Below, one piece after another: positions 1 through 63,999 of a stretch of 64,000 nt of DNA. Positions within the stretch are counted from its first letter, which is position 1; each line of letters begins with the position of its first letter. Origin of the DNA: Chrysomallon squamiferum. Its lineage: Eukaryota; Animalia; Mollusca. The DNA lies in NCBI GenBank assembly GCA_012295275.1, contig CM022671.1:33418001-33482000 (forward strand). The letters run 5' to 3'. Made by a program: the position numbers and the translations under genes. The notes under the pieces were generated by a model. That model made no database searches, was not told the DNA's origin, and was given only the letters and a program-made list of their open reading frames with translations.

Positions 1-2725
1 GATCTGGATTAGAAATTGAAAGAGATATGTTGAACAGAATGAAAGAACATATCCAACAATGTGCCAATAATTTCAAAACTGTCACTGTTACTCTCTATCA
101 TGCACCAGGTGGTGGTGGAACCACAATGTCTCAAAGAATTTTGTGGGATCTCCATAAGATTATCCCATGTGTTGAAGTGAAAAAGAATGCTCATGTTGAA
201 GGATTAATAGACAGAATTACTTTCATTCATGATAAAACGCATCTACCAGTATTGGTATTACTAGATGGAGATGATGAGGTGAAGGTAAAACAACTGAACA
301 CAGGTTTGAAATCAGTGTATTCTGTATTGTTGTATGTCAAAAGATACATTGGACCAATGCTAGAACCAAATTATAACCTGGATGAAAATAAATTTTGGTT
401 AAAAGGAAGAGTATCAGCATGTGAAGCCAACAGACTTGCACTCAAATTTCAAGACCACTGTGATGATGAAGCAAAGAAAAGAAAGCTTGCCAAACTCAGC
501 AGAGAAGTGCGGGAGAAACAAATTTCACATTATGTTTTTGAATTTGGGATGACAACATATTGTGCTGAATATAAAGGTATTGCATCTTTTGTTAGAGGTT
601 ATTTAAGTTTAGACAGATATCCAGAAATGGACCTTTTACCATGGCAAAAGCTTTTAGCATATTTGTCCTTGGTATACTACTATGGCCAGGCATCAGTGCC
701 TTGTCAGTTTTTTGGACAACTACTGAACAAACCATCAAATTATGTCATTGACATGGATGATTTTCCACATCCACTTTGTTTATTTGTTGTACCTAGTTCA
801 AATAAATATAGAGCTAATGAGATCAGAATCTGTCATTACTTTGTTGCTAAGGAGGTACTTGAATATGTACTTAATCCTTTGAAAGATGGTTTACAAGAAA
901 ATTATCTCAGCAGAACTGCTAAAAGGAACTTAAAAAAACTGTGCATTGAGTTCATAGACTATGCTGGTCACAAAAATCTGAAATCTTCTTTAACTGCCAC
1001 AACAGTCATACGTATTCTAACTGAAACGTTTATCTATAGAGACAACAAAAATATTGGAGAAAGTGAAATCTCCAAAAACAGGAAACCTGTGTTTGCAAAG
1101 GCAGTCATTGATGTTGACCAATATCAACCCTTTACAGGGAGACTTGAAGTTCTGCGAAAACTAACAACTTCTTTTCCTCAGGATCCAAACTTTCATGCTC
1201 ATCTTGGACGATTTTATGCTTGCTGCAGACCAGAAGAAGAAGACAAGGCAGAAGCTTGTTTTGAAGATGCTCTCAAACTCTGTGAGCAACAGAACTTGGG
1301 GAAAGAAATAAATGATATTGAGGATAGCATGCGTTTAACTCTCATGCATGTTTATCATATGTATGGTACCATATTTAAACAAAGAGTGTCAAAATTTACT
1401 GGAAAACCACCATGGAACAAAACACAAGTAAACATAGATGACAGTCAGTTCTTGTCTAAAGCTGAAAACCTAACAATTGTTGCAGAGAAGGCTTGCAAAT
1501 ACTTTGGACTCAGTAGAAAACATAAACCACTAGGACATGGTGAAACAACTGATTATTCATTTTCTTCTGAAATCATAGTCCGTCTTCATGTATGTGACTT
1601 TGTAAGAAAACACCAAGGACAGAATGGAATAACAAAGTTCATTAAAGAGAATAATGATCATCCAGCAGCTAAATTCATTAAGAAAAGTGTTTATACCATT
1701 GAAGATTTAATGGTAGAATACTACAATACAGTTGATCCTGATAATGCAGATCAAGAATATCAGAGAGCCATAGTTTGGTATCATGTTTTATTCAGTGAAC
1801 ATACAGATAAACTGAAAAACTGTTTCCAACTGTTGATCATGATTCTAGGAGATTAACAATTGCTGCTATCAAAACTAAAATATCTTGAAAATTTTAAAGG
1901 CACCTTGTAGTGTTTTTGAGGAAAACCATTTCAGAAGATGACATACAGTTGGTAACATTATATGAAGGAAATTTCATCGATGCTCATATATCTTCTGAAA
2001 TAAATAAAAGAAAACTTGATGGTGATTATAAAGAATGGATAATTGCTATTCGAAATCCTGCTTTCCATAAAAGCTATTCTGTTGAACATGTTCTAACATT
2101 TGTACGTGACTGGAATTATTTTGTATCCAGTCCCTTATCTCGGTTTTATCTTTTCATCTGTACAAGTCTCATTGGTTTTGGTATAGGATTTCAGAAAGGT
2201 TTCAGTGAATCTTTGGTAGAAGCACAGATCATTAAAGATGATCTTCAGAAAATGAGCAAATCAATTTGGAGGCCTCGTTATCCAAGAGAATGGCTGGGTA
2301 AAAATGAAGAAGACATTAAATGTCTTTTAACCAATAACAGAATTGGTCACATTGAAGACAGACATATTGACCATTCTTCTGAATTAGCAGTATGTAAAGG
2401 GACTATATGCAGTCCAAATAAAAAACCTCTGAGTGGATATATTGACTTGGATCTTGGGGAAAATCCAGTTTCTGTAAAGGTATTTTTTATCCCATTAAAA
2501 GCAAAACTTAACAGCACAAGGTATGCTGGAATAAGGGTACAGTTCCATTTAGCATTTACATTAGACCATGGATATGAAGCATTTACAGTTATGCTTCTGA
2601 AAAAATATCCTTGCTATGCCTGTGGAAGAAAGACAGAAATTACAATGGACAAAAAGTTGATTACCTGTAGGTGTGGAGAACTTGTTCTGAAAGATGAAAA
2701 GGGAACTGAAGAAGAAATGATTTAA
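1..2725 (+). CDS. SAMD9: SAMD9/SAMD9L-like STAND NTPase, copy 1 (5'-truncated by the window; four frameshifts at ~1815-1921, so either an assembly error or a recent pseudogene)
   Basis: ORFs 27..1856 and 1910..2725 are collinear with the C-terminal ~900 aa of the 1579-aa ORF. Motifs: Walker A LYHAPGGGGTTMSQRILW (SAMD9-type, no Lys), Walker B PVLVLLDGD, TPR-like FHAHLGRFYA, OB-fold end VQFHLAFTLDHGYEAF. The frame is open back to base 3 (SGLEIERDM, matching GHLEVERDIM in copy 2). Confidence 0.85.
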
Positions 2726-6512: not shown

Positions 6513-6576
6513 ATGGCTGAAAATGATGAAGAAAGTCAAACAATGGATCAGGCACAGGCACAAGCCACAAATGAAG
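6513..6576 (+). CDS. SAMD9: SAMD9-like copy 2, first coding exon (MAENDEESQTMDQAQAQATNE, ends phase 1)
   Basis: Acceptor AG at 6495-6496, ATG in good Kozak context (atcATGG), donor AAG|GTAAAT at 6576/6577. Phase is compatible with the next two exons. Confidence 0.7.
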
Positions 6577-6840
6577 GTAAATATTCATACACCACAAATC
6601 TAGAAATGAGAGGTGATGATTTATATAAATGAAGTTTGTTTGCATTCAGTTTTGTATTTGTGGATTAAACTTAACTAAATAAATAAATAAATCAATCAAT
6701 TAATAAATAAATAAATACCTTTATAGGAAAAACTTTCTTTGAATAATTTTGGTCTGTTGAAAATACTACATACACTAAACAAATGTTGTGTTGTTTTTAA
6801 GAAAAAAAAAAATATTTAATTGTCTTATTTTTACTTACAG

Positions 6841-6963
6841 ATCAGAGATGTACTATAATTAACTATTTCAGAGACTGTAAGTTTAAGAATGTTGACAAAC
6901 TACAAGTAGGAGGAAACAACTCTATAATAAATCAGGCATCAGATCTTCTAGCTTCCTCAAAAG
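6841..6963 (+). CDS. SAMD9: SAMD9-like copy 2, second coding exon, encoding a RHIM-like motif (DQRCTIINYFRDCKFKNVDKLQVGGNNSIINQASDLLASSK)
   Basis: Pyrimidine tract and ttacag acceptor ending at 6840, donor AAG|GTATAT at 6963/6964. 123 nt, phase 1-1, with no stop in the required frame. Confidence 0.7.
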
Positions 6964-7494
6964 GTATATTAATAAAAATAATAAATTACTCAATACAGGT
7001 GAATGATCTTAAATTTCATTTAAAAAAAGTATAATTGTGTGCATAGTATCTAACTCAGATTCTTATATTAATAGTAATGGCATCACATAATCTTGTTTAT
7101 TTAATGAAGCATTCAATACATTGTATTTACGGTTTTGTGGCATAAGACATATTCTTTTTCTTCTTGGAGGCCATTGATAAGTCCTTGGAGTTTGGTATTT
7201 AGGAATATGTCTTGTGTCCAAACTTTCTGACAGTTCACTTCCAGGTATTGGCAGTATTTGCAAGACCCATCTTTTTCAGTACAGTTTGCAGATGAAAATT
7301 ATTGTTTGTTCTTTCCTGTTGAACTGATATATGCAGTCTTTATCAGGGCTGTAACCTGTAGTTTCTGATCTTCCACTTTGAACTTTAATTTTGAAGTGCA
7401 TATTATGAAGGATAGCATTCGCAGAATTAGCTTATCATTTTGGCCAGCAGGTCAGCTTTTTCATTACCTGCTGGTATCCACTGGAGAGCACTGA

Positions 7495-7640
7495 ACATAA
7501 TTATGATTAAGGATCACTCAGATAATAGGCAAGGAAACCTACATCTGTCAGTTATGGACTGTTCATTCTGATTAGCAGAATAGAATCTTTATATGCACCA
7601 TTCCAGTCAGGAAAGTATGTACCACATCTTTGTTACACTG
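7495..7640 (-). mobile_element. Degenerate fragment of a mollusc-type tRNA-derived SINE
   Basis: The sequence aaggatcactcagata...ggaaacc...gattagcag...tttatatgcaccat...taccacatctttgttacac resembles, from memory, an abundant gastropod SINE. Related decayed pieces occur at ~48197, ~50265 and ~53020. Not verified by search. Confidence 0.4.
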
Positions 7641-7809
7641 ATTATCCTCAGCTACCAAGGTGATAATTACTGTAAGAAAATGACTTTGTTATAAACACTG
7701 ACATCATCTTTTGATTCCAAACTGAAATTTTCTTCCTGATACCCTAGTCTTTTTATAGCTGAATGGCTGCTGATGATGGGGAATTTATGTTTTAAATGTT
7801 AAACATATA

Positions 7810-8553
7810 CAGTGGTACCTTGAGTTACAAGTGCTCCAACTTACTGGCTTTTCGATTTACAAGCAGCTGCCCTGTCAATTTTTTGCTTTGAGTTGTGAGC
7901 CAAAATCCAAGTTATGAGCAAGCTTTGGATACACCACCAGTAGTTGGTGCAATGAACATCACAACATCCTCTCAGTGAATTCCTCGTTTGCTTCATGTGG
8001 TTACCTCGCCTTGGAAGCATCTCTGTTGTTTTGTGCAGTATTTTGCTATTATTTCATGGAGCCTAAGAAAGTGAATGCAAAGGACAGTGGTGAGAAGACA
8101 AAGCGATGATGTCCATTGAATTAAAGCTTGAATTCATAGAAAAACATGAGCGAGGTGTGCGAGTAGTCAACATGGCTCGGCAGTACAAGCTTAGTAATTT
8201 TTCTATATGTACCATATTGAAGCAGAAGGCATTGATAAAGGCTATAACTCCAGCCAAAGGCATTAAAATAATTTCTAAGCAACAGACCTCTGTCCATGAA
8301 ACCCTAATCCTGTACACTTTACAAAACCAATTTATTTCTTTACATTCTCTTTTATTTTGTTTTTTTATACAATATTTGTCATTTATACATACATTTTTCT
8401 TATTTAAAGACACCTTACAAAAATCTGGGGCTGGAATGGATTAATGGTATTTCAATTAATTTCATCTGGGAAAATGTATTTGATATATATGAGCAAATTG
8501 AGTTACAAGCTCGGCCACGGAATAAATTAAACTTGTAAGTCAAGGTACCACTG
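7810..8553 (+). mobile_element. Non-autonomous Tigger/pogo (Tc1-mariner superfamily) DNA transposon, 744 bp, in an intron of SAMD9-like copy 2
   Basis: 23-bp TIRs CAGTGGTACCTTGAGTTACAAGT / ACTTGTAAGTCAAGGTACCACTG (1 mismatch) with TA target duplications at 7808-7809 and 8554-8555. Internal CENP-B/psq HTH remnant MSIELKLEFIEKHERGVRVVNMARQYKLSNFSICTILKQK (8106 onward). No DDE domain. Confidence 0.92.
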
Positions 8554-8651
8554 TATTTTGTTATATGTTAATAGCAAAGTGTGTAAAGTGTCACTGAACA
8601 AAATTTAATAAATATATTGACTTATTACAAATAAATTCTTTAAATATATTT

Positions 8652-8657
<6 letters not shown>

Positions 8658-8728
<71 letters not shown>
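8658..8728. repeat. (CT)n microsatellite
   Basis: Pure dinucleotide run. Confidence 0.95.
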
Positions 8729-8731
<3 letters not shown>

Positions 8732-8795
8732 AACAAAAATCATAAAATTAGAACCAAAATTGTTGTATATATATACACACATAACATTTTTTCAG

Positions 8796-11700
8796 ATACT
8801 GGTGAGGATTATAACAAAAGTGACATATTTGCAGCACTTGTTACAAGTTGTCTCAACCCAACAAACTCTTCAAGGGCAAAAGAAATGAAACTACAGGTTC
8901 TGGAAAAGAAACTTGATACTCTGCTATCATTCATATATAGAAAGAAGACAAAATTTAGAGATGTGTATGGAAAACCTACATCTGATTTTATTGAAAAGAA
9001 TAATGATAGGTTTGCCCTCATCAACAAAAATGGTGCTCTTTATGTGAAATTAAAGATATCGGCAGTGAAATATGAAGAAAATAAGATGGCAAGTTATAAA
9101 TGTACTGAGGACAAAGGTGAAAAGGATGAAGTAGATAGAAGTCAGGAAGGATTTCAGCCAGTCAGTGATAAATGTGAGAGTGAAGTCTGGGTGAAACAGA
9201 TGTCAAAGAAATGTACTGAGGACAAAGGTGAAAAGGATGAAGTAGATAGAAGTCAGGAAGGATTTCAGCCAGTCAGTGATAAATGTGAGAGTGAAGTCTG
9301 GGTGAAACAGATGTCAAAGAAACAGAGAAGAAAAGCCAATAAAAAGGAAAAGAAAGATGACAATGTCAGCAACGAGAGCATTTTTTTCATCCAGTCTGAT
9401 ACCAAGTCCTCTTTAGACAAAACTTTTGTTGAAGGCCTCCTAAATCAGACAGAAAGTAATAATGTAGTATTTTACCCTGATGACAAAATTTATAAAGATA
9501 ACCCATACCAGTTTATGCAGGATGTTGTAAGTATATGGAACACTCCCTACAGACATGATGGTTTCATTGTTCTGGGTGTAGAATGTCAGATGCAGATGCC
9601 ACATAAAGTGATAGGTCTTAATACTTCAAATGGCAATGATGTTTACCAAAATCTCTTTGTTGCACAGTGCTTCAAAATTAAACCCCAGTATGAATACACA
9701 GAACATTTGTACAATGGAAAAATTGTAGGAGTTATCACAATTCCAAGTAGCCATGGGAAGGGTTATCCATCAGTTGTTGAAAACAATTCATGCGAACCAC
9801 ATTTTGTCAAAGGCCAGTTGTGGGCCCGTTTCAACAAGGTAAACAAATTAATACCTGCAGAAGATTTGTTCACAGGACAAATTTACTTCTGGTTCTTCTC
9901 ACCAATTACTACAACGTCCTTTGTGGAGCCTGAACCTCAGTCAGTGACAAGAGAATCTCAAACCTCTGAATCTGAAGTAGAGTTAGAAATTCAGGAACTC
10001 CCGGAGGTTTGTGAAGAGAAGACAGAGTTTGCAGCAGCTGTGGACTGTTTCAAGAAAGGCTTTTTTGTTTTAATTTCTGGCAAATCACCAAAGATATCAA
10101 AGCACTTGGAAAAGCTTGCCCTTGTACCATGGGTGTCAGTTTATGACTTTGACAAATACAGCAGAGACTGTGGTTTGCTTTCTTGTCTTGAAGATGTCAT
10201 TAAGAAGAAGAGATACTTAAATGTGCACACATGGATGACACCAGCATCTAATCTGACAGAAAGTGGAACACAGTGGTGTTGTATGAGAGGCCTGAGAGAA
10301 ATTGCAGACAGTGATACACCAGATGATCCACTGAGATGGTTTAAACACACAAAATCAGGTCTTGATAATATTTGTCTCAGTCTGGCTAGATTTGCTGAGA
10401 TTTATACAGTCCTTAAGATAATAATCTTTTGGCCTGATGATGAACAGAGGGTCCAGTACATTTACCGATTTCTGGCTCATCTTGATGGATATTTAGGACC
10501 ATCAAAGCTGGTCATCATCTGTTTTGAAGATCCAAGGACAGACGTGTCAAAATCACGGCTTTCCATGTTAATCAGTGAGCATAAAGAAGATGCTGTAAAA
10601 ATTGTCATGCATCAGGACGAGCTGTGTTCTGAAATAGAAAACTTGTTAGAAAGCAGAGAGGTGGCAAAAAAAGTTAGTTATACTCTACCAAAAGAGGAGG
10701 GTTATGCCAATTGTTATATTGATGAAACTGATGCCATCTGGTTGCGTGAGGACCTGGATGTCCTCTTTGAATCAAACCCATACACCAAAAATGAATCTGA
10801 TGTGGATGTTTTGGATAAAGAAGCTGACAACTTCTTTCATGGTGGAACCATTCACTGGTTTGCCTGGTATGAATTGGGTTCTGGACATTTAGAAGTTGAA
10901 AGAGATATCATGTTCAGCATTTTGGATCATATTAATAAAAAAATCAAGAAAGAATATCGAAGTTTTATCATTACCCTCTTTCATGCTCCAGGTGGTGGTG
11001 GTACCACAATGGCTCAGAGAATCCTGTGGGAACTTCATCGCACCATCCCTTGTGCTGAAGTGAAAAAGAGAGCTACAATTGATGGGTTAACAGATAAAAT
11101 TATGTTCCTTCATGAAAAATCCAACCTTCCTGTAGTTCTGCTTTTTGATGGAGGTGAAGAATCAGGAATTAAACAATTGGTGAAATGTCTCCACTCTGTT
11201 TTTGCCATAATTCTTTATGTGAAGAGACACCCTTACATGATTCCAGAGGTAGCGTCTCGACCATGGGATAACAAATTTTGGTTGGATGGCAAAGTGTCAG
11301 GTGTAGAAGCCAAAAAGCTTGCACTGAAATTTGCTAGTAGATGTGAATCCAAAAAGAATAAATTAACCAAAATGAGTAGAGAAGTGCATGATGAAGGAAA
11401 ATCTCATTATGTTTTTGAATTTGGAATGGCTGTTTATTTATCAGAATTTAAAGGCATTTCTTCTTTTGTTAGAGGATACCTAGATTTTGAAAGGAATCCT
11501 CAAAAACAGCTTTCACCTATACAGAATGTTCTTGTCTATTTGTCTCTTGCATATTACTATGGTCAGTCACCTATACCGTGTCAATTTTTTGCACCTCTGC
11601 TTGGTAAACCATCAAATTATGAGATTGACATGGAAGATTTTCCTCACCCAGCAAGTGTTTTCATAGTAAAAGATTTGAATAATGGAAGAGCCAATGACAT

Positions 11701-13624
11701 CAGAATTTGTCATTACCTGGTTGCTAAAGAGATCCTTGAGTACATCCTTAATGAAAAGCAGACTCGTCATCATGCTGATAAGCTCAGCACGTCAGCCAAG
11801 AGAGGTTTGAAGGATCTGTGTCTTCAGTTCATATCATATGCTAGTCAGAAGAACCTGAGGTCATCACTAACTGCCTGGACTGTGATTCGAATCCTTACTC
11901 AAACTTTTATCTTCAGGGATAACAAAGACGTGGGAGAGAATGAAACTCAAACTAAAAAGCCTCTGTTTTCACAAATAATGAATGATGTTGACTCTGACCC
12001 TCCTTACACTGGTCGACTTGAAATTCTAGAAAAACTTACAAGTTCTTTTCCAGGTGATCCAAATTTCCAGGCTCATCTTGGAAGATTTTATGCCCACTGC
12101 AGACCTGATGAAGATGGCAAAGCTGTGGCATGTTTTAAACGAGCACTTGAACTTTGTCATCAACAACATGTTGGAAAAGAAATGGATGATGCAATGAGAT
12201 CCACCTTGATGCACATATACCACATGTATGGAATGATATACAAGAAAAAGGTTTCCAGATATACAGGGAGAACTCCAGGAGACAAACCAGACATAAAAAC
12301 ACCTGCTGATGAATTCATGTCAACAGCTGAACGCATTACTGCTGATGCTGAAATAGCTTGTTTGCAGTTTGCAAAAAGCAGAGAACACAAACCAAAAGGA
12401 AATGATGAAATATACAATTATGCATTTTCAAGTGAAATCATGGTCCGTCTTCATGTCTGTGACTTTGTTCAGAGAAATTACCAGCTTGGTGGGATTTCTG
12501 ATTTCCTTTCGCAAGAGCAGGATCACCCAACAGCAAAATTTATTGAAGAAACAATTGGCACTGTTGAAGACTTAATAGTGGAATGCTACAGTGTTGTGAA
12601 TATTGAAAATATTGATACAGAGTTTGGCAAGGCTTTGTTTTGGTACCATTCTCTTTTCAAAAGCCATTCTTCCCATCTTGAAAACATGTTCCTTGATGAT
12701 GAGGTTTCATCAAGAAGACTGAAAATTGCAGCCTTGAAACTGAAATATTTGTCAAACTGTAGAGGAACATGTAGTGTATTTGAAGGCAGTTCTGTGACAA
12801 AGGAAGATCTTAAGAAGCTGGTTCACTGGTATGAGCAGAACTTCAAAGATGCTATAAGCTATGGAGAAGCTAACAAGAGGCAGCTTGATGGTGATTATAA
12901 AGAGTGGATGTTTGCAATTCGTAATCAGGAATTTGTCTATAATTACTCAGTGGAAAAGGTGTTGCAGTTTGTACGAGATTGGCATAAACAGGTGAAAAGT
13001 CCAACATCCATCTTTTATCTTTTCATTTGCAAAAGTCTTGTTGGCTTTGGAACAAAATCTCAAAAAGGTATCAGTGAGACTTTGGTAGAAGCTCAGCTCT
13101 TAAAGAGTGAATTACAGAATTTAAGCAAATCTGTTCTCAGGCCACGATTCCCCCATGAATGGCTGGGAAAAGATCAAAATGGAATAAAATGCCTAATTTC
13201 AAACAACAGAATTATTGATGCAGGACATATGAAAGGTGATTCTTCTTTGTTGGCCATTTGCAAGGGAACAATATGTCATCCTAACAAGAATCACCTGAGT
13301 GGGTACATTGATCTTGATCTTGGAGACAATTCTGTTGCAGTAAAGACATTTTACATCCCAATTAGAGCTGAACTTCATGGCGCCAGATATGCTGGAAAAA
13401 GAGTTCAGTTCCATTTGGCTTTTTCTCTCGTTCATGGATATGAAGCTTTTGCTGTGACACTTCTGAAGAAATACCCTTGTTCTGCCTGTCAGCTAAAGAT
13501 AGAAATTCCAAAAGAGGAAGAATCTGCTGACTGTTGTTGTGGAACTGTTGTCAAACGAACAGACTCACCAGTGGAAGAAGACACACACAGCATGGAACTG
13601 AACATGAATGAAGAACTCAAGTAA
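8796..13624 (+). CDS. SAMD9: SAMD9/SAMD9L-like protein copy 2, main 4.8-kb exon (LOTUS-like wHTH, AlbA_2, SIR2-like, STAND NTPase, TPR, OB fold, Zn ribbon); about 1671 aa when spliced
   Basis: The 1579-aa ORF 8885..13624 extends in frame to the acceptor ttttttcag at 8795. Motifs: AlbA_2 QDVVSIWNTPYRHDGFIVLGV, SIR2-like VPWVSVYDFD, linker FFHGGTIHW, Walker A LFHAPGGGGTTMAQRILWEL, Walker B PVVLLFDG, IRICHYLVAKEIL, FQAHLGRFY, OB end VQFHLAFSLVHGYEAF. The domain order is that of SAMD9. No SAM domain was recognised. Confidence 0.9.
9098..9322 (+). repeat. Perfect in-frame 111-bp tandem duplication (37 aa x2)
   Basis: Units start at 9098 and 9209 and are identical at the DNA level: KCTEDKGEKDEVDRSQEGFQPVSDKCESEVWVKQMSK. 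Confidence 0.97.
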
Positions 13625-21370: not shown

Positions 21371-22831
21371 CTATTTATATTTATTCAGAAACTTCTGATG
21401 AAACTTTGAAAATTCCTTTAGTAATTTCTCAATCTCTGTCAAAGGTGGCAGAATGGTTGTTCGGAAGTGGTATGTCCCTTTCTTCTCCCCAAAACCACTT
21501 CCAGGTACAGTGCAGATTCCTGTCTCCTCTAGCAGCTGGAAGCAGTAGAAGGAATCAGGAGTCTGATTTGCTGCTTTGGCTGCTGCTATAGCTTTCTCAG
21601 GTAAAAAGATTCTTGGAAATGCATACATAGCTCCCTGCACTTCGTTACACTTAATGCCATCAATAGAGTTGAAAGTTTTTGTAACTAGTGCAGCTTTTTT
21701 AGCGAGCTGACTGAGAACTTCGTCCTTTTCTTCTTCAAACAACTTGTGCGATGGATAACCAGGCTTTGGAGGATTCACGACAACATCTAAAACAATCTGA
21801 CCTGAGATTGGAGGACAGAGTTTGGCAGATATACTCTTCTGATACTGAAGTTTCACATCAGGATCCAAGTTAATAATTTCACAGTACCCACCTCTGTATC
21901 CACATTCGCCCATGAAACCCTTAGAGGCAGACATGAAAGAAGCCAGTTCCATAGTGTTATATTTAGGACCCATTTCCATCAAAACTTTCTTAAACGAGAA
22001 AAATTTGCTGCCTTTTGCATAAACATTATGCTGATACACCTCATCAGCTAAAATAAATAACCTTTCTTCTTTAGCAAATTTGATGATACCTTCAATGTTT
22101 TCTCGAGTAAGAACCTGTCCTGTTGGATTCCCAGGATTGATAACAACAATTGCTCGAGGTTTGCACTGTGGTCGAGCTTCATCTATAGCTCTTTTCAATT
22201 CCTTTAAATCAAGACCCCAGTGGTTGTCTTCATCCAGATAATAAGGTATAGGAAATGCATTAAATTCTGCAATGGCTGCTGTGTAAAGTGGATACTGGGG
22301 AACTGGTATCATTATTCCTGCCCTGTCTGTACCCAGTTTTCCTGTCAAAACCAAACTTAAAACAGATTTTATTCCATCACTTGCTCCCGTTGACATATGT
22401 ATGTCTTCCATGTTAGACGGATGTCCGTCTCGTAATGTTATGTAATCTGCAATGTCTTTTCGTATTATATCAATGCCTGAACTAGCACTATACGAACCTA
22501 TACTGCCTCCTTTACATCCTTCAAGGATTGTTTTAGCACGTTGTTTCGCATCTTCGGGAAAATCGGAACTATTCATAAGCAAGTCTGGGTACGTACACAG
22601 CGCAACTACCTGCCGTATAAACTTCATTGGTTTTTGACCTGTTGCATGACAGTCACCTATATTTGCTCTTACAACACTGGAAAAGGGTTTTTTCTCACCG
22701 TTCGCCAGTTCTTTCTCTAACTGAGCCGCTCTTGCTACGATCGGTCCTCTAACTGCATACTCCATGGTTTTTATATTTGGATTCAAAGTTTCCATTGTAA
22801 GAACTTTATCATTTTTCATTTGACCTGCCAT
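21371..22831 (-). CDS. GPT: Alanine aminotransferase (glutamate-pyruvate transaminase), 486 aa, no intron in the CDS
   Basis: Motifs MEYAVRGPI, ANIGD, PVPQYPLY, VINPGNPTGQV, ADEVYQ, PLP-lysine SASKGFMGECGYRGG, QGAMYAFP, VPGSGFG, HFRTTILP. The first ATG (aaaATGG) is at 22831; the ORF track starts at an upstream GTG. Confidence 0.96.
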   Translation of the reverse strand: MAGQMKNDKVLTMETLNPNIKTMEYAVRGPIVARAAQLEKELANGEKKPFSSVVRANIGDCHATGQKPMKFIRQVVALCTYPDLLMNSSDFPEDAKQRAKTILEGCKGGSIGSYSASSGIDIIRKDIADYITLRDGHPSNMEDIHMSTGASDGIKSVLSLVLTGKLGTDRAGIMIPVPQYPLYTAAIAEFNAFPIPYYLDEDNHWGLDLKELKRAIDEARPQCKPRAIVVINPGNPTGQVLTRENIEGIIKFAKEERLFILADEVYQHNVYAKGSKFFSFKKVLMEMGPKYNTMELASFMSASKGFMGECGYRGGYCEIINLDPDVKLQYQKSISAKLCPPISGQIVLDVVVNPPKPGYPSHKLFEEEKDEVLSQLAKKAALVTKTFNSIDGIKCNEVQGAMYAFPRIFLPEKAIAAAKAANQTPDSFYCFQLLEETGICTVPGSGFGEKKGTYHFRTTILPPLTEIEKLLKEFSKFHQKFLNKYK

Positions 22832-23312
22832 TTTGGAATACTTTATTAAATTATCTATCACTATTATTTACGATCCGGAATAATAAAAGAATTATTACTT
22901 AAAAGTACTTCACTGATGAAGTAACGTATTGTAACTTTCAACAGTTATGTTGAACAACAGGAACTATCAAGCCGGATCCTCGCTTCGATAATTTTCTAGC
23001 CCTTGACATTTTCTACATGCCCTTCCTGTTACCAAGGTCGTTTCCGTTTACCGAAGTTAGTGCAAAAAATGTAGGGGTTAAAAAAAAAAAAAAAAAAAAA
23101 TAAAAAAATAGTAATAAAAAAAGAAGAAGAAAAACAACAACAACAACACCAATAAAATAATAATAAAAAAAAAAAAAAAAATAAAAAAATAAATAAAAAC
23201 AAATAAAAACAAACAAACAAAAAACAAAACAAAATAAATAAATGAAAAAACAACAACCAATAATAATAATAATAAATGCGTTGTCAAATCATACGGATAA
23301 TAAAAAGAAAAT

Positions 23313-44002: not shown

Positions 44003-44817
44003 GTGACAGTATTGGCGAGTTTCTGACTGTTGACCAGTTTAACTGAAAAAGAATCGGAACGGATGAGGTCAGTGTTGGCGTTAATTCTAACAAAGCCGGA
44101 GATTACTTTATTTCTTCTTGTCCACAAATTATCCTCTAAAAAAAAGAATGTCAGCCAAAGCTCACCATTAACAGCACCATTTCCGGCCTTTCACCTGACG
44201 GAAGTAGCCCACACGATAAGGTCTTTTTGTAATCACTGGCAAGTGTTGTTCCATTATGGCTGACGTTGACCGAGAGTAAAGTCAATATTTGCAAAATCCT
44301 CAGAACTTCTGCGTTATAATCTTTGTTACGGCACCAGAAACGCAGTGGTCGCAATAATTAGGAACTTCGTATCCGCTTGGGCTTTCCCGTCAAATAAAGC
44401 GATGCGGTAATTCATTTGTAATTTAAAAACATTTGTTTCGCACTGGGAAATAAACGAGGACCTGAAAAGGAAAAAAGAAACTTTGTCTCCCCTGGGAGCT
44501 GTAAATTGGATGATGTTTTATGAATGTTTTGAATAAACACTGAAACTTGTTACAGTGACGGATTGCGGCTGCTGGTAGTTCTTTTACAAACATTAGAAAA
44601 ACAAAATGGCGTTCCTAGAATCTGTTCGTTTCGGTTAACACGTCAGCTTGAAATTGGCAGGAGATATCTGTTAATGGATTTCGTGTTTGTGTTTCCACGT
44701 CGTGCCTTTGTCCTAACACCTAAATGTCATTTGACGAATTCGAAAAAGTGAATATGAATTTTTAAATGTTACTCTGATATTTCACTGCTAATTTGGATAA
44801 ACATTTTACGCCTAGCG
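44003..44817 (+). other. Putative 5' UTR part of the GPCR coding exon
   Basis: Strong acceptor ttgctcttttcatctgttgcag ending at 44002, followed by complex, repeat-free sequence up to the ATG. Confidence 0.4.
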
Positions 44818-46461
44818 ATGGAGAAAACTACATCAAGCTTGATGGACAACTTTACTAATTTCTGGTCCAGTTTAACAAGCCAATCAAAAGATTACTCGAC
44901 TGAATCGGATTCAGTGTCACATATTCAGGAATCAGACTCAAGGACATATTCCCCAGAATCAAATGCAAGGACATATACTTTGGACGCAGATTCAAGAACT
45001 TATTCCTCAGAATCAGACGTCTTCTTTAACATGACTAATACTGATATGAATAAACAGGAAATGTCCACACTGTCTCACAATATTACATCTGTTTACAAAA
45101 CAACAACATCTAGGTTGTTGTCTACCCTTTTTTCAGGAATATCTGAAGAAACGTCTTCGGTTGACGATATTTCGCATAACCCTCGTGGTGACACAGGAGT
45201 GTACACGAATGGAACCGATTCTTTAGATTCGGAATTCGAGTACAGCACCAGTTCGTTTACAGACAGTTTGAGTAACAGTGCAAGCTCCGTAACAGACCAG
45301 TACGTATACCCTCTTTTTACCGGTACTCTCTCCACATTCGTCAGTTCAGGAACCTATGTTCAAAATGGCGTCAGAACAGTGGCAGACGATTCAGACATTG
45401 ACGTCATTGTGCTCAAAGTGTTGTCCTTGATCCTCATCGCTCTGGCAGGCATAGCGGGTAACGGTTTTATTCTCGTCAGGGTGGTCCGAGCTGTCAACCT
45501 ACACAGACCCCCTTTCTACTACCTGCTGAGCATGTGTGTGTCGGATATATCAAGATCTGTGTTCTGTGTTCCTCTCGTTCTGACGTCAGTGTTACAAGAT
45601 TCTGTATGGAAATACGGAACGTCTGCTTGCAAGCTCTTCGCTTTCGCAAACTCCTTTTTTATCTACAGTTCATGCATGTCTATTCTTGCCATAGCCGTAG
45701 ATCGGCACGTATCAATAGTATATTCTAAATATTACAGACGTCGTTCCCGTGGTCTGTTGAACATGATTGTCGTCGTAATCGGATGGACTGTTGCGTTTGC
45801 CATGTCTTTCCCTCCAGTGATCGGAGTGGGTACTTACGTGTTCATAGCAGACGAAGCACAGTGCACGTTTTATCACAGAGACTATCGGCGGAATGATACA
45901 CTCGGTTTTTTACTTGTGTTCACGATGATTCTGTGCTTTGCTGCATTCCTCTACTTCCGTGTTTTCGTGTTTCTCCGCGCTCACAGACGAATGAGACCAT
46001 TAGAGCACACAGCTGCTAGAAGTCGAAACTGGACTTTTATCGGGCCAGGAGCAAACGGACAGGCAGTGGTCAACTGGCTTAACGGCTTTGGCGGTCGTAA
46101 TCAGCCCAATCCTATCGGGAACGGAGCGAGAAATCCTCAAATTCATCCGAATTTCGGTCGCGTCGTGAACCTCCAGGTCACGAAAAACGAACATCTGACC
46201 AGGCTTTTTTGCTTTCTGACATGCGCATTCGGTATCCTGTGGGCGCCTTACATTGTTCTGGGTTTCTGGAGAATTTTCGGTGATGCAAATTTAATATCGT
46301 CCCCTTACGTAACTGTGTCGACTTGGCTTTCTTACACCCAGGTGGCGCTGTGTCCTGTTGTTTACATTTTGTCACGTGGGCCAATTAGAAGAAGTTCAAG
46401 GACAGTGGTAGACGCTAATGACAAGAAAGAATTTTTACTGGAGCCAAGACATAGAAAATAA
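44818..46461 (+). CDS. GPR85: Class A orphan GPCR of the SREB family (GPR85/GPR173/GPR27-like), 547 aa, single coding exon
   Basis: Seven hydrophobic segments plus SREB-diagnostic strings LHRPPFYYLLSMCVSDISRS, FAMSFPPV, QCTFYHRDYRRNDTLGF and NWTFIGPGANGQAVVNWLNGFG. Probably a co-ortholog of all three vertebrate SREBs, so the symbol is nominal. Confidence 0.9.
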   Translation: MEKTTSSLMDNFTNFWSSLTSQSKDYSTESDSVSHIQESDSRTYSPESNARTYTLDADSRTYSSESDVFFNMTNTDMNKQEMSTLSHNITSVYKTTTSRLLSTLFSGISEETSSVDDISHNPRGDTGVYTNGTDSLDSEFEYSTSSFTDSLSNSASSVTDQYVYPLFTGTLSTFVSSGTYVQNGVRTVADDSDIDVIVLKVLSLILIALAGIAGNGFILVRVVRAVNLHRPPFYYLLSMCVSDISRSVFCVPLVLTSVLQDSVWKYGTSACKLFAFANSFFIYSSCMSILAIAVDRHVSIVYSKYYRRRSRGLLNMIVVVIGWTVAFAMSFPPVIGVGTYVFIADEAQCTFYHRDYRRNDTLGFLLVFTMILCFAAFLYFRVFVFLRAHRRMRPLEHTAARSRNWTFIGPGANGQAVVNWLNGFGGRNQPNPIGNGARNPQIHPNFGRVVNLQVTKNEHLTRLFCFLTCAFGILWAPYIVLGFWRIFGDANLISSPYVTVSTWLSYTQVALCPVVYILSRGPIRRSSRTVVDANDKKEFLLEPRHRK

Positions 46462-60872: not shown

Positions 60873-62562
60873 ATATACAGGTACAGATTCTCATAAGTAT
60901 GAATATATTTATAAAATTAAAATAGTACAATTTTACAGCAAAATTTTTTTTCACTAAAGTAACAATTAAATTATTTAGAATAACAATAAGACATTGTAGA
61001 ACTAGATATAAAATTATAAAACAACTCCATACTACTGAAAATTATGGAAATCACATGATATTTAAATCAGAAATGGTCAAAATATTCCCTTTATAATGAT
61101 ATATGAAAATAAAAGATCAAGTAATTAAAGCACATTTTAAGAAAAGCAGACATTCGTAATTAATACACAAATTACCGTAATATATACATCTATAAAATAT
61201 ATGTTATTAATTTATATAATGTAACAAGAACAAGATAAATGTCAGATTACGACCAATCTTCAATACCTTGCCATTAGTTCACTGATATAAGCGATTAATT
61301 AAAATGTACCTATGTGCCAGTCTAATTGCTATTTGTCTAATTACAAAAGATTATAAGTTACTGGTAATGAATGTTTATTAATAATAAAGTAGTGACAAAG
61401 AAATAAAATAAAAAATACAATTTCTGAGAATATATGAAGTTCAGTAATTTTATAACATCATTTAATATTCAGAAATGAAAAATACACATAATAAAGTATT
61501 GACAAAGAAATAAATAAAAAAGAAAATGTAAAAGTTTGAGTATTCTAGTAAGCTATTTATTGTCATACTTTATTGGTAGTAAAGTAACAAATTAAATGAA
61601 CTCGCGGAAGTATTGTGTGTTTAGTATGTTATTTTGTACTGCATCTGGTACACATTCACATTCAAATGTATATAGAATTTTATGAATTTTTTATGAATAT
61701 TCGTTTATTTATTTATTCTTATTTTATTCTTATTTTGTTATTATGTTTGAATGTGTATCCAGATTAATCTGAACATTAAAGTGTACTAGATGCCATAAAA
61801 AAGAAAATGCTAAATATTTATAAATACTTAAATTTCACGAGCTGTCTCACTGGTAAATCTAGACAAAACTAAACCTACAAACTACAGTGAATGCATCTGA
61901 AAAATAATAAAGTACTGTACATTTTCTCAGTTACAAAAATATTCAGCAGAATGTCTAAATTTTGTGGTAAGACACATCAAAGAATTTATTTTGTAGTTCC
62001 ATAGTTTAGAAAGTTTCCTATTTTTCAATAATTAATTCAATATATTTATAATGAAAATATTGTTTGCAAACTAAGATAGGCTGCCTGAACAAGCATCATT
62101 TGTAGCCTGACAACATTTTATTTTTAATGTTTTAAATTGTTTTAAATTGATTATTTCTGTTTGGCATATTTATTGTGAGTGTGTGCAAATGGCCAGCTGC
62201 ATAGGTGTATGTTTTGTATATATACCATCTCTTTAAAAAAATTGTCTCTGTGACTGTGCAAGTGTACGAAACTTATGTAGATACTGTATTTCTTCTGATC
62301 ACTGGTCTTATTCATTGTTAAACGTTTCATTTATTATGCAATGCTATTTATCATTCATTAACCACGTGTAGTAGATTGAAAAGAACTATACTATATTATT
62401 TTGTGAGTTAAGCTCTAAATGAGTTTTAGTTTTTTTTTAAGTTTCCACTTAAAACTTTCATTACTGAGTATATTTGGTCACATGAATATTTCCCCAGTGA
62501 CAGCTCTACTGATGACTTGGTTTCTAACAGCCAGACAAAAAACATAATCAGTCAGTGAAATT

Positions 62563-63999
62563 TTACACAGAACTGTGCTTTCTGTACATCATAACTGGAC
62601 CTGTGGGGACGTACATGTAAGACTTTCCAGTCAGGTATTCCTGCTCTCCTTGGGCTTTATGTCTTGTGTTACCACTGATATCATAAATAAAAATGTCTTT
62701 GACATCAAAATTTTCCCCTTCATGAACAATCTGCATTCCATTCATATTAGTATCCAGCCTTTCTCTGTTATCTTCATTAAGGCTATCCTTGACATCAACA
62801 TTGTACCCTCCATTCATATCAGCGTTCAGCCTTTCTCTGCTGTCACCCTTCAGCCTATCCTTGTCATCAACATTGTACCTTCCATTCAAATTACCATTCA
62901 GCCTTTCTCTGTTGTCATCATTAAACTTATCCTTGACATTGACCTTCTGTCTTCCATTCACATTAGCATTCAGCCTTTCTATGTTTTGATTATAAACCGT
63001 ATGTTTGACACGCGCCTTCCGCCTTCCATTTACAATACCATTCACAATAGCATTCAATCCTTCTCTGTCAACATCAAGCCTATGATTCACATGAACTTTC
63101 TGCCTTCCATTGACATTAGAATTCAGTCGTTCTCTCTTTTCTTCATTAAGCCTATGCTTGATGTGACCATTCTGCCTTCGACAGACATTAGCATTATGCC
63201 TTTTTCTTTTGTCATCATAACGGCTATCCTTGATATCACTATTCTGCCTTCCATTCATATTAACATTCAGCCTTTCTCTGTTGCCATCATTAAGGCTATC
63301 CTTGACATCAGTATTCTGCCTTCCATTCATATTAGTATTCAGCCTTTCTCTGTTGCCATCATTAAGCCTATCCTTGACACCAGTATTCTGCATTCCCTTC
63401 ATATTAGCATTCAACCTTTCTCTGTTGTCATCATTAAGCCTATCCTTGATATCAGTATTCTGCCTTCCATTCATATTAGCATTCAGCCTTTCTCTGTTGC
63501 CATCATTAAGCCTATTCTTGACATCAGTATTCTGCCTTCCATTCATATTAGCAGTGAGCCTTTCTCTGTTGTCACCATTAAGCCTATCCTTGACATCAGT
63601 ATTCTGCCTTCCATTCATATTAGCATTCAGCCTTTCTCTGTTCTCTTCATTAAGCCTATCCTTGACATCAGTATTCTGCCTTCCATTCATATTAGCATTC
63701 AGCCTTTCTCTGTTCTCTTCATTAATCCTTTCCTTGACATCAGTATTCTGCCTTCCATTCATATTAGTATTCAGCCTTTCTCTGTTGCCATCATTAAGCC
63801 TATCGTTGAATTGACCATACTGCCTTCCATTCACATCAGCATTCAGCCTTTCTTTTTTCTCATCATTACGCCTATCCTTAACATCAGCATTCTGCCTTCC
63901 ACTGAAATTAGCATTCAGCCTTTCTCTATAGTCATCATTAAGCCTCTCCTTGATATCACTATTCTGCCTTCCATTGACATTAGCATTCAGCCTTTCTGT
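62563..63999 (-). CDS. 3' end of an unidentified protein with ~19 tandem 22-aa N/R/D/E-rich repeats; 5'-truncated by the window
   Basis: The frame is open from 63999 to the stop at 62563. The 66-nt unit (ERLNANMNGRQNTDVKDRLNDDNR-like) diverges without stops or frameshifts and ends in a unique tail ...YMYVPTGPVMMYRKHSSV*. Confidence 0.7.
   Translation of the reverse strand, partial: TERLNANVNGRQNSDIKERLNDDYRERLNANFSGRQNADVKDRRNDEKKERLNADVNGRQYGQFNDRLNDGNRERLNTNMNGRQNTDVKERINEENRERLNANMNGRQNTDVKDRLNEENRERLNANMNGRQNTDVKDRLNGDNRERLTANMNGRQNTDVKNRLNDGNRERLNANMNGRQNTDIKDRLNDDNRERLNANMKGMQNTGVKDRLNDGNRERLNTNMNGRQNTDVKDSLNDGNRERLNVNMNGRQNSDIKDSRYDDKRKRHNANVCRRQNGHIKHRLNEEKRERLNSNVNGRQKVHVNHRLDVDREGLNAIVNGIVNGRRKARVKHTVYNQNIERLNANVNGRQKVNVKDKFNDDNRERLNGNLNGRYNVDDKDRLKGDSRERLNADMNGGYNVDVKDSLNEDNRERLDTNMNGMQIVHEGENFDVKDIFIYDISGNTRHKAQGEQEYLTGKSYMYVPTGPVMMYRKHSSV

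Follow-up and report, generated by a model that had tools for sequence, protein, structure and literature searches.

A RHIM-like motif and a LOTUS-like winged helix at the head of a SAMD9-family STAND gene in the snail Chrysomallon squamiferum

A three-exon SAMD9-family gene with a transcribed motif exon

We analyzed a 64-kb stretch of the genome of the snail Chrysomallon squamiferum (contig CM022671.1, positions 33,418,001 to 33,482,000; all 64,000 nucleotides are called the window here), in which a gene on the forward strand encodes a SAMD9-like STAND protein and carries, in a small second exon, a motif resembling RHIM, the amyloid motif of RIPK1 and RIPK3. A sequence-only reading of this DNA had proposed a gene of three exons and 1671 residues with canonical splice sites, and a body homologous to SAMD9. 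Both proposals held. The coding exons (Table 1) have GT donors and AG acceptors throughout, and the spliced coding sequence of 5016 nt translates into 1671 residues plus a stop codon, with no internal stop. The acidic leader encoded by exon 1 has a similar counterpart in P0001, the homologue from Gigantopelta aegis. Exon 3 is 64% identical to P0001 over 99%, its named animal matches are all molluscs, and it matches human SAMD9 structures with E 1.3e-13 as a single sequence (phmmer) and 2e-33 as a family profile. The predicted gene product belongs to the SAMD9 family of STAND proteins.

The motif exon is present in RNA. Contigs from four runs of one study were compared with positions 6725-8650, and exon 2 was covered in all four runs without a mismatch. 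The X1 (690 nt) and X3 (843 nt) contigs match exactly 6839-6963, the extra AG being also the end of exon 1, and continue into non-intronic flanks of 233+332 and 332+386 letters, respectively, with a depth of 0 in the intron bins on both sides. Because the ends are exact, the flanks non-intronic and the neighboring introns without depth, we concluded that exon 2 is spliced into a transcript; its junction partners we infer to be exons 1 and 3, and P0001 has the same head-body arrangement. Contigs with exact exon ends rule out that exon 2 is an intronic pseudo-exon.

Exon 2 is symmetric, so an isoform lacking the motif is possible. Between 6796 and 6984, an X3 contig of depth 95 aligns with the intron sequence on either side of exon 2, with a 143-nt skip and loose ends; its sides are short and AT-rich, so it is either a chance match or derived from a related locus. 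In Dreissena, a 169-residue isoform (P0192) stops right after the RHIM-like motif and is a possible decoy. Intron 2 contains, at 7800-8560, a multi-copy element to which many RNA contigs are 90-95% alike, with internal deletions, and which, by eye, resembles a Tigger/pogo transposon remnant.

A Pfam scan of exon 3 returned no family, and a SAM domain was not matched in exons 2 and 3 at E 10. The AlphaFold2 model of exon-3 residues 1-501 contains a winged helix (residues 5-89), which is the first folded domain; then come an extended linker of low confidence, an AlbA fold and the first part of a SIR2-like domain. The AlbA fold aligns with human SAMD9 DBD (7KSP) with a VIA Z of 8.4 (root-mean-square deviation 4.2, 159 residues aligned) and a Foldseek E of 2.8e-3. 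The SAMD9-type Walker A is found in 46 of the 48 homologues P0001-P0048; the sensor-1 Arg is aligned with that of human SAMD9, and the second Walker B acid is Gly in the window protein. The TPR and OB parts have weak or sub-threshold sequence matches only, and a zinc ribbon is weakly matched in P0007 and P0010. The perfect repeat in the linker is either a recent duplication or an assembly artefact.

For the winged helix, the VIA Z scores were 7.8 for TDRD5 (root-mean-square deviation 3.3, 76 residues aligned), 7.7 for MARF1 and 7.6 for Tejas, with other winged helices within 1 Z. In a second model the order was unchanged; across the two models LOTUS chains lead with Z 6.6-7.8, level with other winged helices. 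OST-HTH (PF12872) matched 2 of 14 members (E 0.011) and not the window protein, and homologues gave weak WH_Egal matches. The domain is thus predicted to be LOTUS-like. The Z-alpha domain of ZBP1 is a winged helix, and the Z-alpha of PKZ was among the structural matches of the window domain. A winged-helix profile retrieved 10 proteins, six from the family set, three unchecked ones of family length and one 183-residue fragment, with no other fusion seen among them. The sequence-only reading had the SAMD9 body right but overlooked both this domain, which separates the motif from the core, and the erosion of the AlbA site described below.

Table 1. Features of the SAMD9-family gene and of its upstream paralogue (window coordinates)
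Feature	Position	Strand	Remarks
Coding exon 1	6513..6576	+	Start codon ATG at 6513; GT donor; phase 1, frame continuous with exon 2; encodes acidic leader
Coding exon 2	6841..6963	+	123 nt; AG/GT sites; symmetric (frame survives skipping); RNA contigs
RHIM-like motif	6852..6932	+	TIINYFRDCKFKNVDKLQVGGNNSIIN in exon 2; core LQVG at 6900-6911
Coding exon 3	8796..13624	+	Open reading frame; whole SAMD9-family body through stop codon
Winged-helix domain, LOTUS/OST-HTH-like	8810..9064	+	AlphaFold2 predicted local distance difference test (pLDDT) 83-97
Tandem duplication, exact, in-frame	9098..9322	+	111 nt (37 residues), 2 copies, 100% match; linker pLDDT <50
AlbA_2/Schlafen-fold domain	9410..9901	+	E-x4-D-x-K eroded: E kept, D to V, K to Y
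SIR2-like, Delta and NBD region	10064..11179	+	phmmer, exon-3 residues 423-794 against SAMD9 chains; profile E 2e-33
SAMD9-type Walker A	10979..11008	+	FHAPGGGGTT (H-x-PG-x-GGTT); canonical lysine absent; aligned to human motif
TPR-like stretch	11939..12193	+	Weak BamD matches, E 0.04; weak TPR Pfam matches in homologues
C-terminal OB-fold end and Cys4 zinc-ribbon-like motif	13403..13543	+	Sub-threshold profile alignment to last strand of human SAMD9; CxxC...CxC
Tandem paralogue, 3' part	1..2725	+	55% identity over 607 residues; open reading frames 3-1856 and 1898-2725

The RHIM-like motif and the AlbA site across the family

The motif recurs at the same place in related proteins. A search with exon 3 as the only query gave 48 animal homologues, whose first 100 residues contain the core tetrad 11 times; the remaining 67,889 residues contain it once. 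A winged helix was detected in 65 proteins; 35 with fewer than 30 residues before it were dropped, probably being models that miss small 5' exons, and 30 were kept. In 19 of these 30 homologues, the 70 residues ahead of the winged helix contain the RHIM-like pattern, which was formulated after the sequences had been seen; the other 11 fail it. It was found in none of 30 downstream segments of equal length, in 10 of 582 background windows and, over 500 shuffles of the segments, in a mean of 1.2 and a maximum of 5. A chance motif is ruled out by these downstream, background and shuffle controls.

Since choosing sequences by the pattern would be circular, one set (A5) was picked by position only. 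From the 30 segments preceding the winged helix it takes 15 and leaves out 11 that belong to the motif-selected set (A2, 12 members), P0053, P0054 and two HEPN-headed proteins, so that the two sets are disjoint. Searched against 177,635 PDB sequences, the A5 profile returned RIPK3 or RIPK1 RHIM chains as all of its top nine matches (best E 0.001). The A2 profile returned RIPK3, RIPK1 and M45 RHIM chains as its top seven (E 4e-5 to 3e-3; next match 0.69), and PF12721, the Pfam RHIM family, matches 7 of the 12 A2 members (best E 5e-6). On these profile comparisons, the case for predicting that the family motif is a RHIM is strong. A RHIM profile run against 5.8 billion proteins gave 13 matches, 11 from the query set and two further family members, and no partner; in a database of that size, RIPK-like proteins are out of reach of so short a profile.

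In the model of P0053 the motif has a pLDDT below 50, which is no proof of disorder, and is not packed on the winged helix, and on this model we rejected the idea that it forms one of that domain's strands. The motif is easily missed because its Pfam score stays below the cut-off, its exon is small and 35 database models start at or just before the winged helix.

Within the window, a six-frame search of the 64 kb for a RHIM-type pattern matched the exon-2 motif and nothing else. A gapped profile of 10 homologues ranks it first of 2729 six-frame segments (E 6e-4, next 0.32), the underlying alignment having originally been built with the window row included. Its core, LQVG, has Leu at position 1, where relatives carry VQIG, IQVG, IQIG or VQVG; the RHIM core tetrad has been given as (V/I)-Q-(V/I/L/C)-G (bioRxiv 2026.02.19.706818). 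A four-copy complex prediction for the exon-2 peptide scored 0.05 and counts neither for nor against the motif.

Carriers of the motif include the gastropods Gigantopelta and Haliotis, the chiton Liolophura, the bivalves Sinanodonta, Potamilus, Solemya, Mya and Pecten and, outside the molluscs, the hemichordate Ptychodera and the amphioxus Branchiostoma. In P0081 of the brachiopod Lingula, a CARD is followed by a similar motif and a winged-helix-like stretch, as judged by eye only. Other family members have CARD, Death or HEPN heads, some of them alongside the motif, which itself fills the slot held elsewhere by CARD or Death domains. Where the sequence-only reading supposed a RHIM-SAMD9 fusion, the motif is indeed present, but predicted RHIM-like motif and winged helix together are a trait common to several invertebrate phyla and no lone fusion. 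A tree of the core computed with FastTree from 51 sequences and 573 columns, without vertebrates or cnidarians and without a clade test, unites all the carriers in a single clade (support 1.0) whose inner nodes are weak. The simplest reading, which is unproven, would be a single early origin of the RHIM-like head. In P0029 and P0048 a DZIP3-like HEPN domain replaces the RHIM, possibly as a replacement RNase effector.

Human SAMD9 and bacterial Avs9 require acidic residues of their AlbA domains (PMC12331169, PMC12680541). We compared the corresponding sites in 116 AlbA matches, of which 108 were countable and eight were dropped for gaps; bacterial-type domains, few of them named, were those with AlbA at the very N-terminus. 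Of 50 bacterial-type domains, 48 have the full E-x4-[DE]-x-K motif, compared with none of 58 animal domains, and the window protein has E, V and Y at its three positions. No sequence alignment was obtained for human AlbA, so that the mapping to Avs9 E14, D19 and D45 and to human residues goes by spacing. AlbA was undetected in 7 of the 19 pattern-positive proteins. Judged from these residues, the tRNase is likely, not certainly, dead. The 150 best matches to the snail protein include bacterial-type AlbA-STAND proteins (P0049-P0051 and P0121-P0188) with the nuclease motif preserved, which bears on a bacterial origin of the invertebrate clade.

A candidate amyloid-seeding sensor and its alternatives

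We consider it probable that this SAMD9-family STAND protein is a cytosolic immune sensor whose activation clusters RHIMs and thereby seeds an amyloid that recruits a RHIM-bearing partner. Counterparts of H737, T744 and R837 of human SAMD9 are found by alignment, and the resting protein would, like human SAMD9, be closed with ATP bound. Binding of a non-self ligand, probably a nucleic acid sensed through the winged helix, AlbA fold or OB fold, would open the protein and drive oligomerization, and the flexibly tethered RHIMs could then nucleate a cross-beta stack. Such a stack might template a RIPK1/Imd-like adaptor or another RHIM protein and lead to NF-kB-type signaling or cell death, and CARD- or Death-headed paralogues may take the same route via death-fold filaments. 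The RHIM is the likely output because the nuclease is eroded and the N-terminal element is what oligomers would cluster; given the eroded AlbA site, the RHIM would probably replace the tRNase output rather than add to it. Human SAMD9 rests ATP-bound and closed, and intermolecular contacts activate it, which has been proposed to yield oligomers that cluster N-terminal effectors (PMC13600222). A review places the origin of RIPK1 and RIPK3 in Mollusca (PMC13506858).

Several observations weigh against this reading. The window motif scores poorly by itself: an ungapped profile of 10 relatives (without P0001) gives it 5.8 bits and leaves exon 2 outside the top 12 window segments, the A5 profile leaves it outside the top 6, PF12721 does not match exon 2 alone, and exon 2 alone retrieves from the PDB no RHIM structure, only a phosducin-like match. 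Full-length homologues reach 13.8-18.3 bits with the Pfam RHIM model, below its cut-off of 20. The window motif also contains several charged residues, with Lys directly before the core; a glycine at the pre-core position matters for the RIPK fibril fold, and mouse RIPK3 tolerates Glu there (bioRxiv 2026.02.19.706818). The window motif is therefore a putative RHIM by homology to relatives that match RHIM profiles and structures, not by its own score. The resemblance to RIPK3 that the sequence-only reading had seen stands through the family profiles, but the window copy is more divergent than that by-eye alignment implied, and the Pfam match it had looked to is absent. As for the output, all 58 animal domains retain the Asp that matches by position the essential D45 of Avs9, and because this residue is invariant and the window protein retains the first Glu, residual AlbA activity is possible. 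In P0080 and P0081 the motif occurs together with CARD or Death and may therefore not be the only output, and human SAMD9 has been observed as monomers and dimers only, higher oligomers being a model (PMC13600222).

The motif might be a true amyloid motif that only self-polymerizes, much as SAM does, and so sharpens the activation threshold, the output then being residual AlbA, the SIR2-like domain or the winged helix acting on RNA. SAM is the polymerizing module of vertebrate members (PMC5445408), and both the invariant D45 equivalent and the CARD or Death domains that adjoin the motif in some members would fit such an arrangement. We nevertheless regard it as unlikely, given the seven carriers with undetected AlbA and a core nuclease motif that is broken in all animal domains; moreover, known RHIMs act heterotypically (PMC4262963), and by the argument made there the charges in the window motif would favor mixed over pure stacks.

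It is rather improbable that a RHIM functional in the family ancestor has decayed or is skipped by splicing in the window gene, leaving a protein that works without amyloid. The window and Gigantopelta motifs do score weakly against the other relatives, exon 2 can be skipped, and 11 of the homologues fail the pattern, yet both motifs keep N-x-x-x-hydrophobic-Q-[VI]-G-G-N-N-S-I although their exon-3 bodies are only 64% identical, and exon 2 is in the RNA of all four runs. We see very little room for a non-immune RNA-granule head, in which the LOTUS-like domain would bind RNA or a DEAD-box helicase and the N/Q/G-rich motif would be a condensation sticker that is RHIM-like by composition. In favor of such a head, the best structural matches of the winged helix are LOTUS domains in both models; against it, the Z scores are below 8 and tied with those of other winged helices, shuffles of the same composition rarely yield the pattern, segments selected by position retrieve RIPK RHIMs specifically among 177,635 sequences, and sister proteins bear death-fold domains.

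The reading that we prefer, an amyloid-seeding sensor, can be set beside several known systems. With the human STAND tRNases SAMD9 and SAMD9L (9ZJR, 7KSP) the window protein shares, in the same order, the AlbA fold, the SIR2-like domain, the GGTT Walker A with its upstream His, the sensor-1 Arg and, on weak sequence matches, TPR and OB. It differs from them in lacking SAM, in having the RHIM-like motif and the winged helix, and in its eroded AlbA motif, the Gly in place of the second Walker B acid and the C-terminal Cys4; orthology is not established. Invertebrate members of the same family with swappable homotypic heads have been described (Mekhedov, Makarova and Koonin, 2017; PMC5445408), the heads covered being SAM, CARD, Death, Pyrin and FIIND; P0081 is the Lingula protein XP_013415988.1 of that study. 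RHIM, LOTUS and OST-HTH do not occur in its accessible text or three supplementary files, and that text does not discuss loss of the nuclease site.

A short N-terminal amyloid motif, a STAND ATPase and C-terminal repeats, as predicted for the window protein, are combined in the RHIM-NACHT protein of Branchiostoma (BF82280) and in fungal NWD2/HET-S (Kajava, 2014; PMC4262963). Those have a NACHT-type NTPase, whereas the window protein has the SAMD9-type NOD with SIR2-like, AlbA and predicted OB parts and no adjacent effector gene in the window. Branchiostoma proteins, the NACHT one included, are reported there with RHIMs in the usual slots of death-fold domains, and a SAMD9-like protein may be among those drawn. 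ZBP1/DAI likewise has a nucleic-acid-binding winged-helix fold adjoining a RHIM (PMC4262963); we claim no homology, and the window winged helix is nearer LOTUS and mounted on a STAND core. Bacterial Avs9-like AlbA-STAND proteins (PMC12680541) share the AlbA-SIR2-NOD body with its predicted TPR and OB parts, keep E-x4-D-x-K (48/50) and are without RHIM or winged helix; they match the query with E about 1e-43, compared with 1e-13 for human SAMD9, in databases that differ. RHIM is not mentioned in the main text of PMC12680541, nor in the accessible text of Kaur 2021 (PMC8195603) and 12 of its 13 supplements. No report of a RHIM-SAMD9 fusion was found in the literature covered, most subscription journals lying outside the search.

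The feature is real, expressed and conserved, and it would combine amyloid-signaling STAND proteins and SAMD9 head swapping, both of them known themes. The observation behind the sequence-only reading is confirmed and its interpretation partly supported. Two of the three findings that would have overturned it, a motif exon missing from RNA and a core lost in relatives, did not turn up. More tentatively, and with some doubt, one may suppose that a bilaterian clade of the SAMD9 family started out with RHIM and LOTUS-like winged helix as its head, lost the tRNase and became an amyloid-seeding nucleic-acid sensor, a ZBP1-like input on an NLR-like switch. If true, animals would have a conserved equivalent of fungal NWD2/HET-S signaling, and in molluscs, brachiopods, hemichordates and amphioxus the RHIM pathways would have an upstream trigger so far unrecognized. 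To our knowledge, the RHIM proteins with known roles are only four mammalian ones and the insect and crustacean cRHIM receptors. The family would offer a candidate trigger for RHIM signaling in molluscs and other marine invertebrates, and it is expanded in bivalves and gastropods relevant to disease in aquaculture. The pattern of heads suggests that the SAMD9 scaffold may exchange outputs among tRNA cleavage, death-fold filaments and amyloid.

Other features of the window

The 3' part of a tandem paralogue lies upstream of the gene (Table 1), its frame broken between about 1830 and 1900, which may indicate a pseudogene or assembly indels. On the reverse strand, long open frames of a repeat of about 15 residues (62548-63999) run past the window end and match no Pfam family above the cut-off. 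Two intronless open reading frames were assigned by eye, one resembling alanine aminotransferase (21371-22867, reverse strand) and one resembling a rhodopsin-class G protein-coupled receptor (44758-46461, forward strand).

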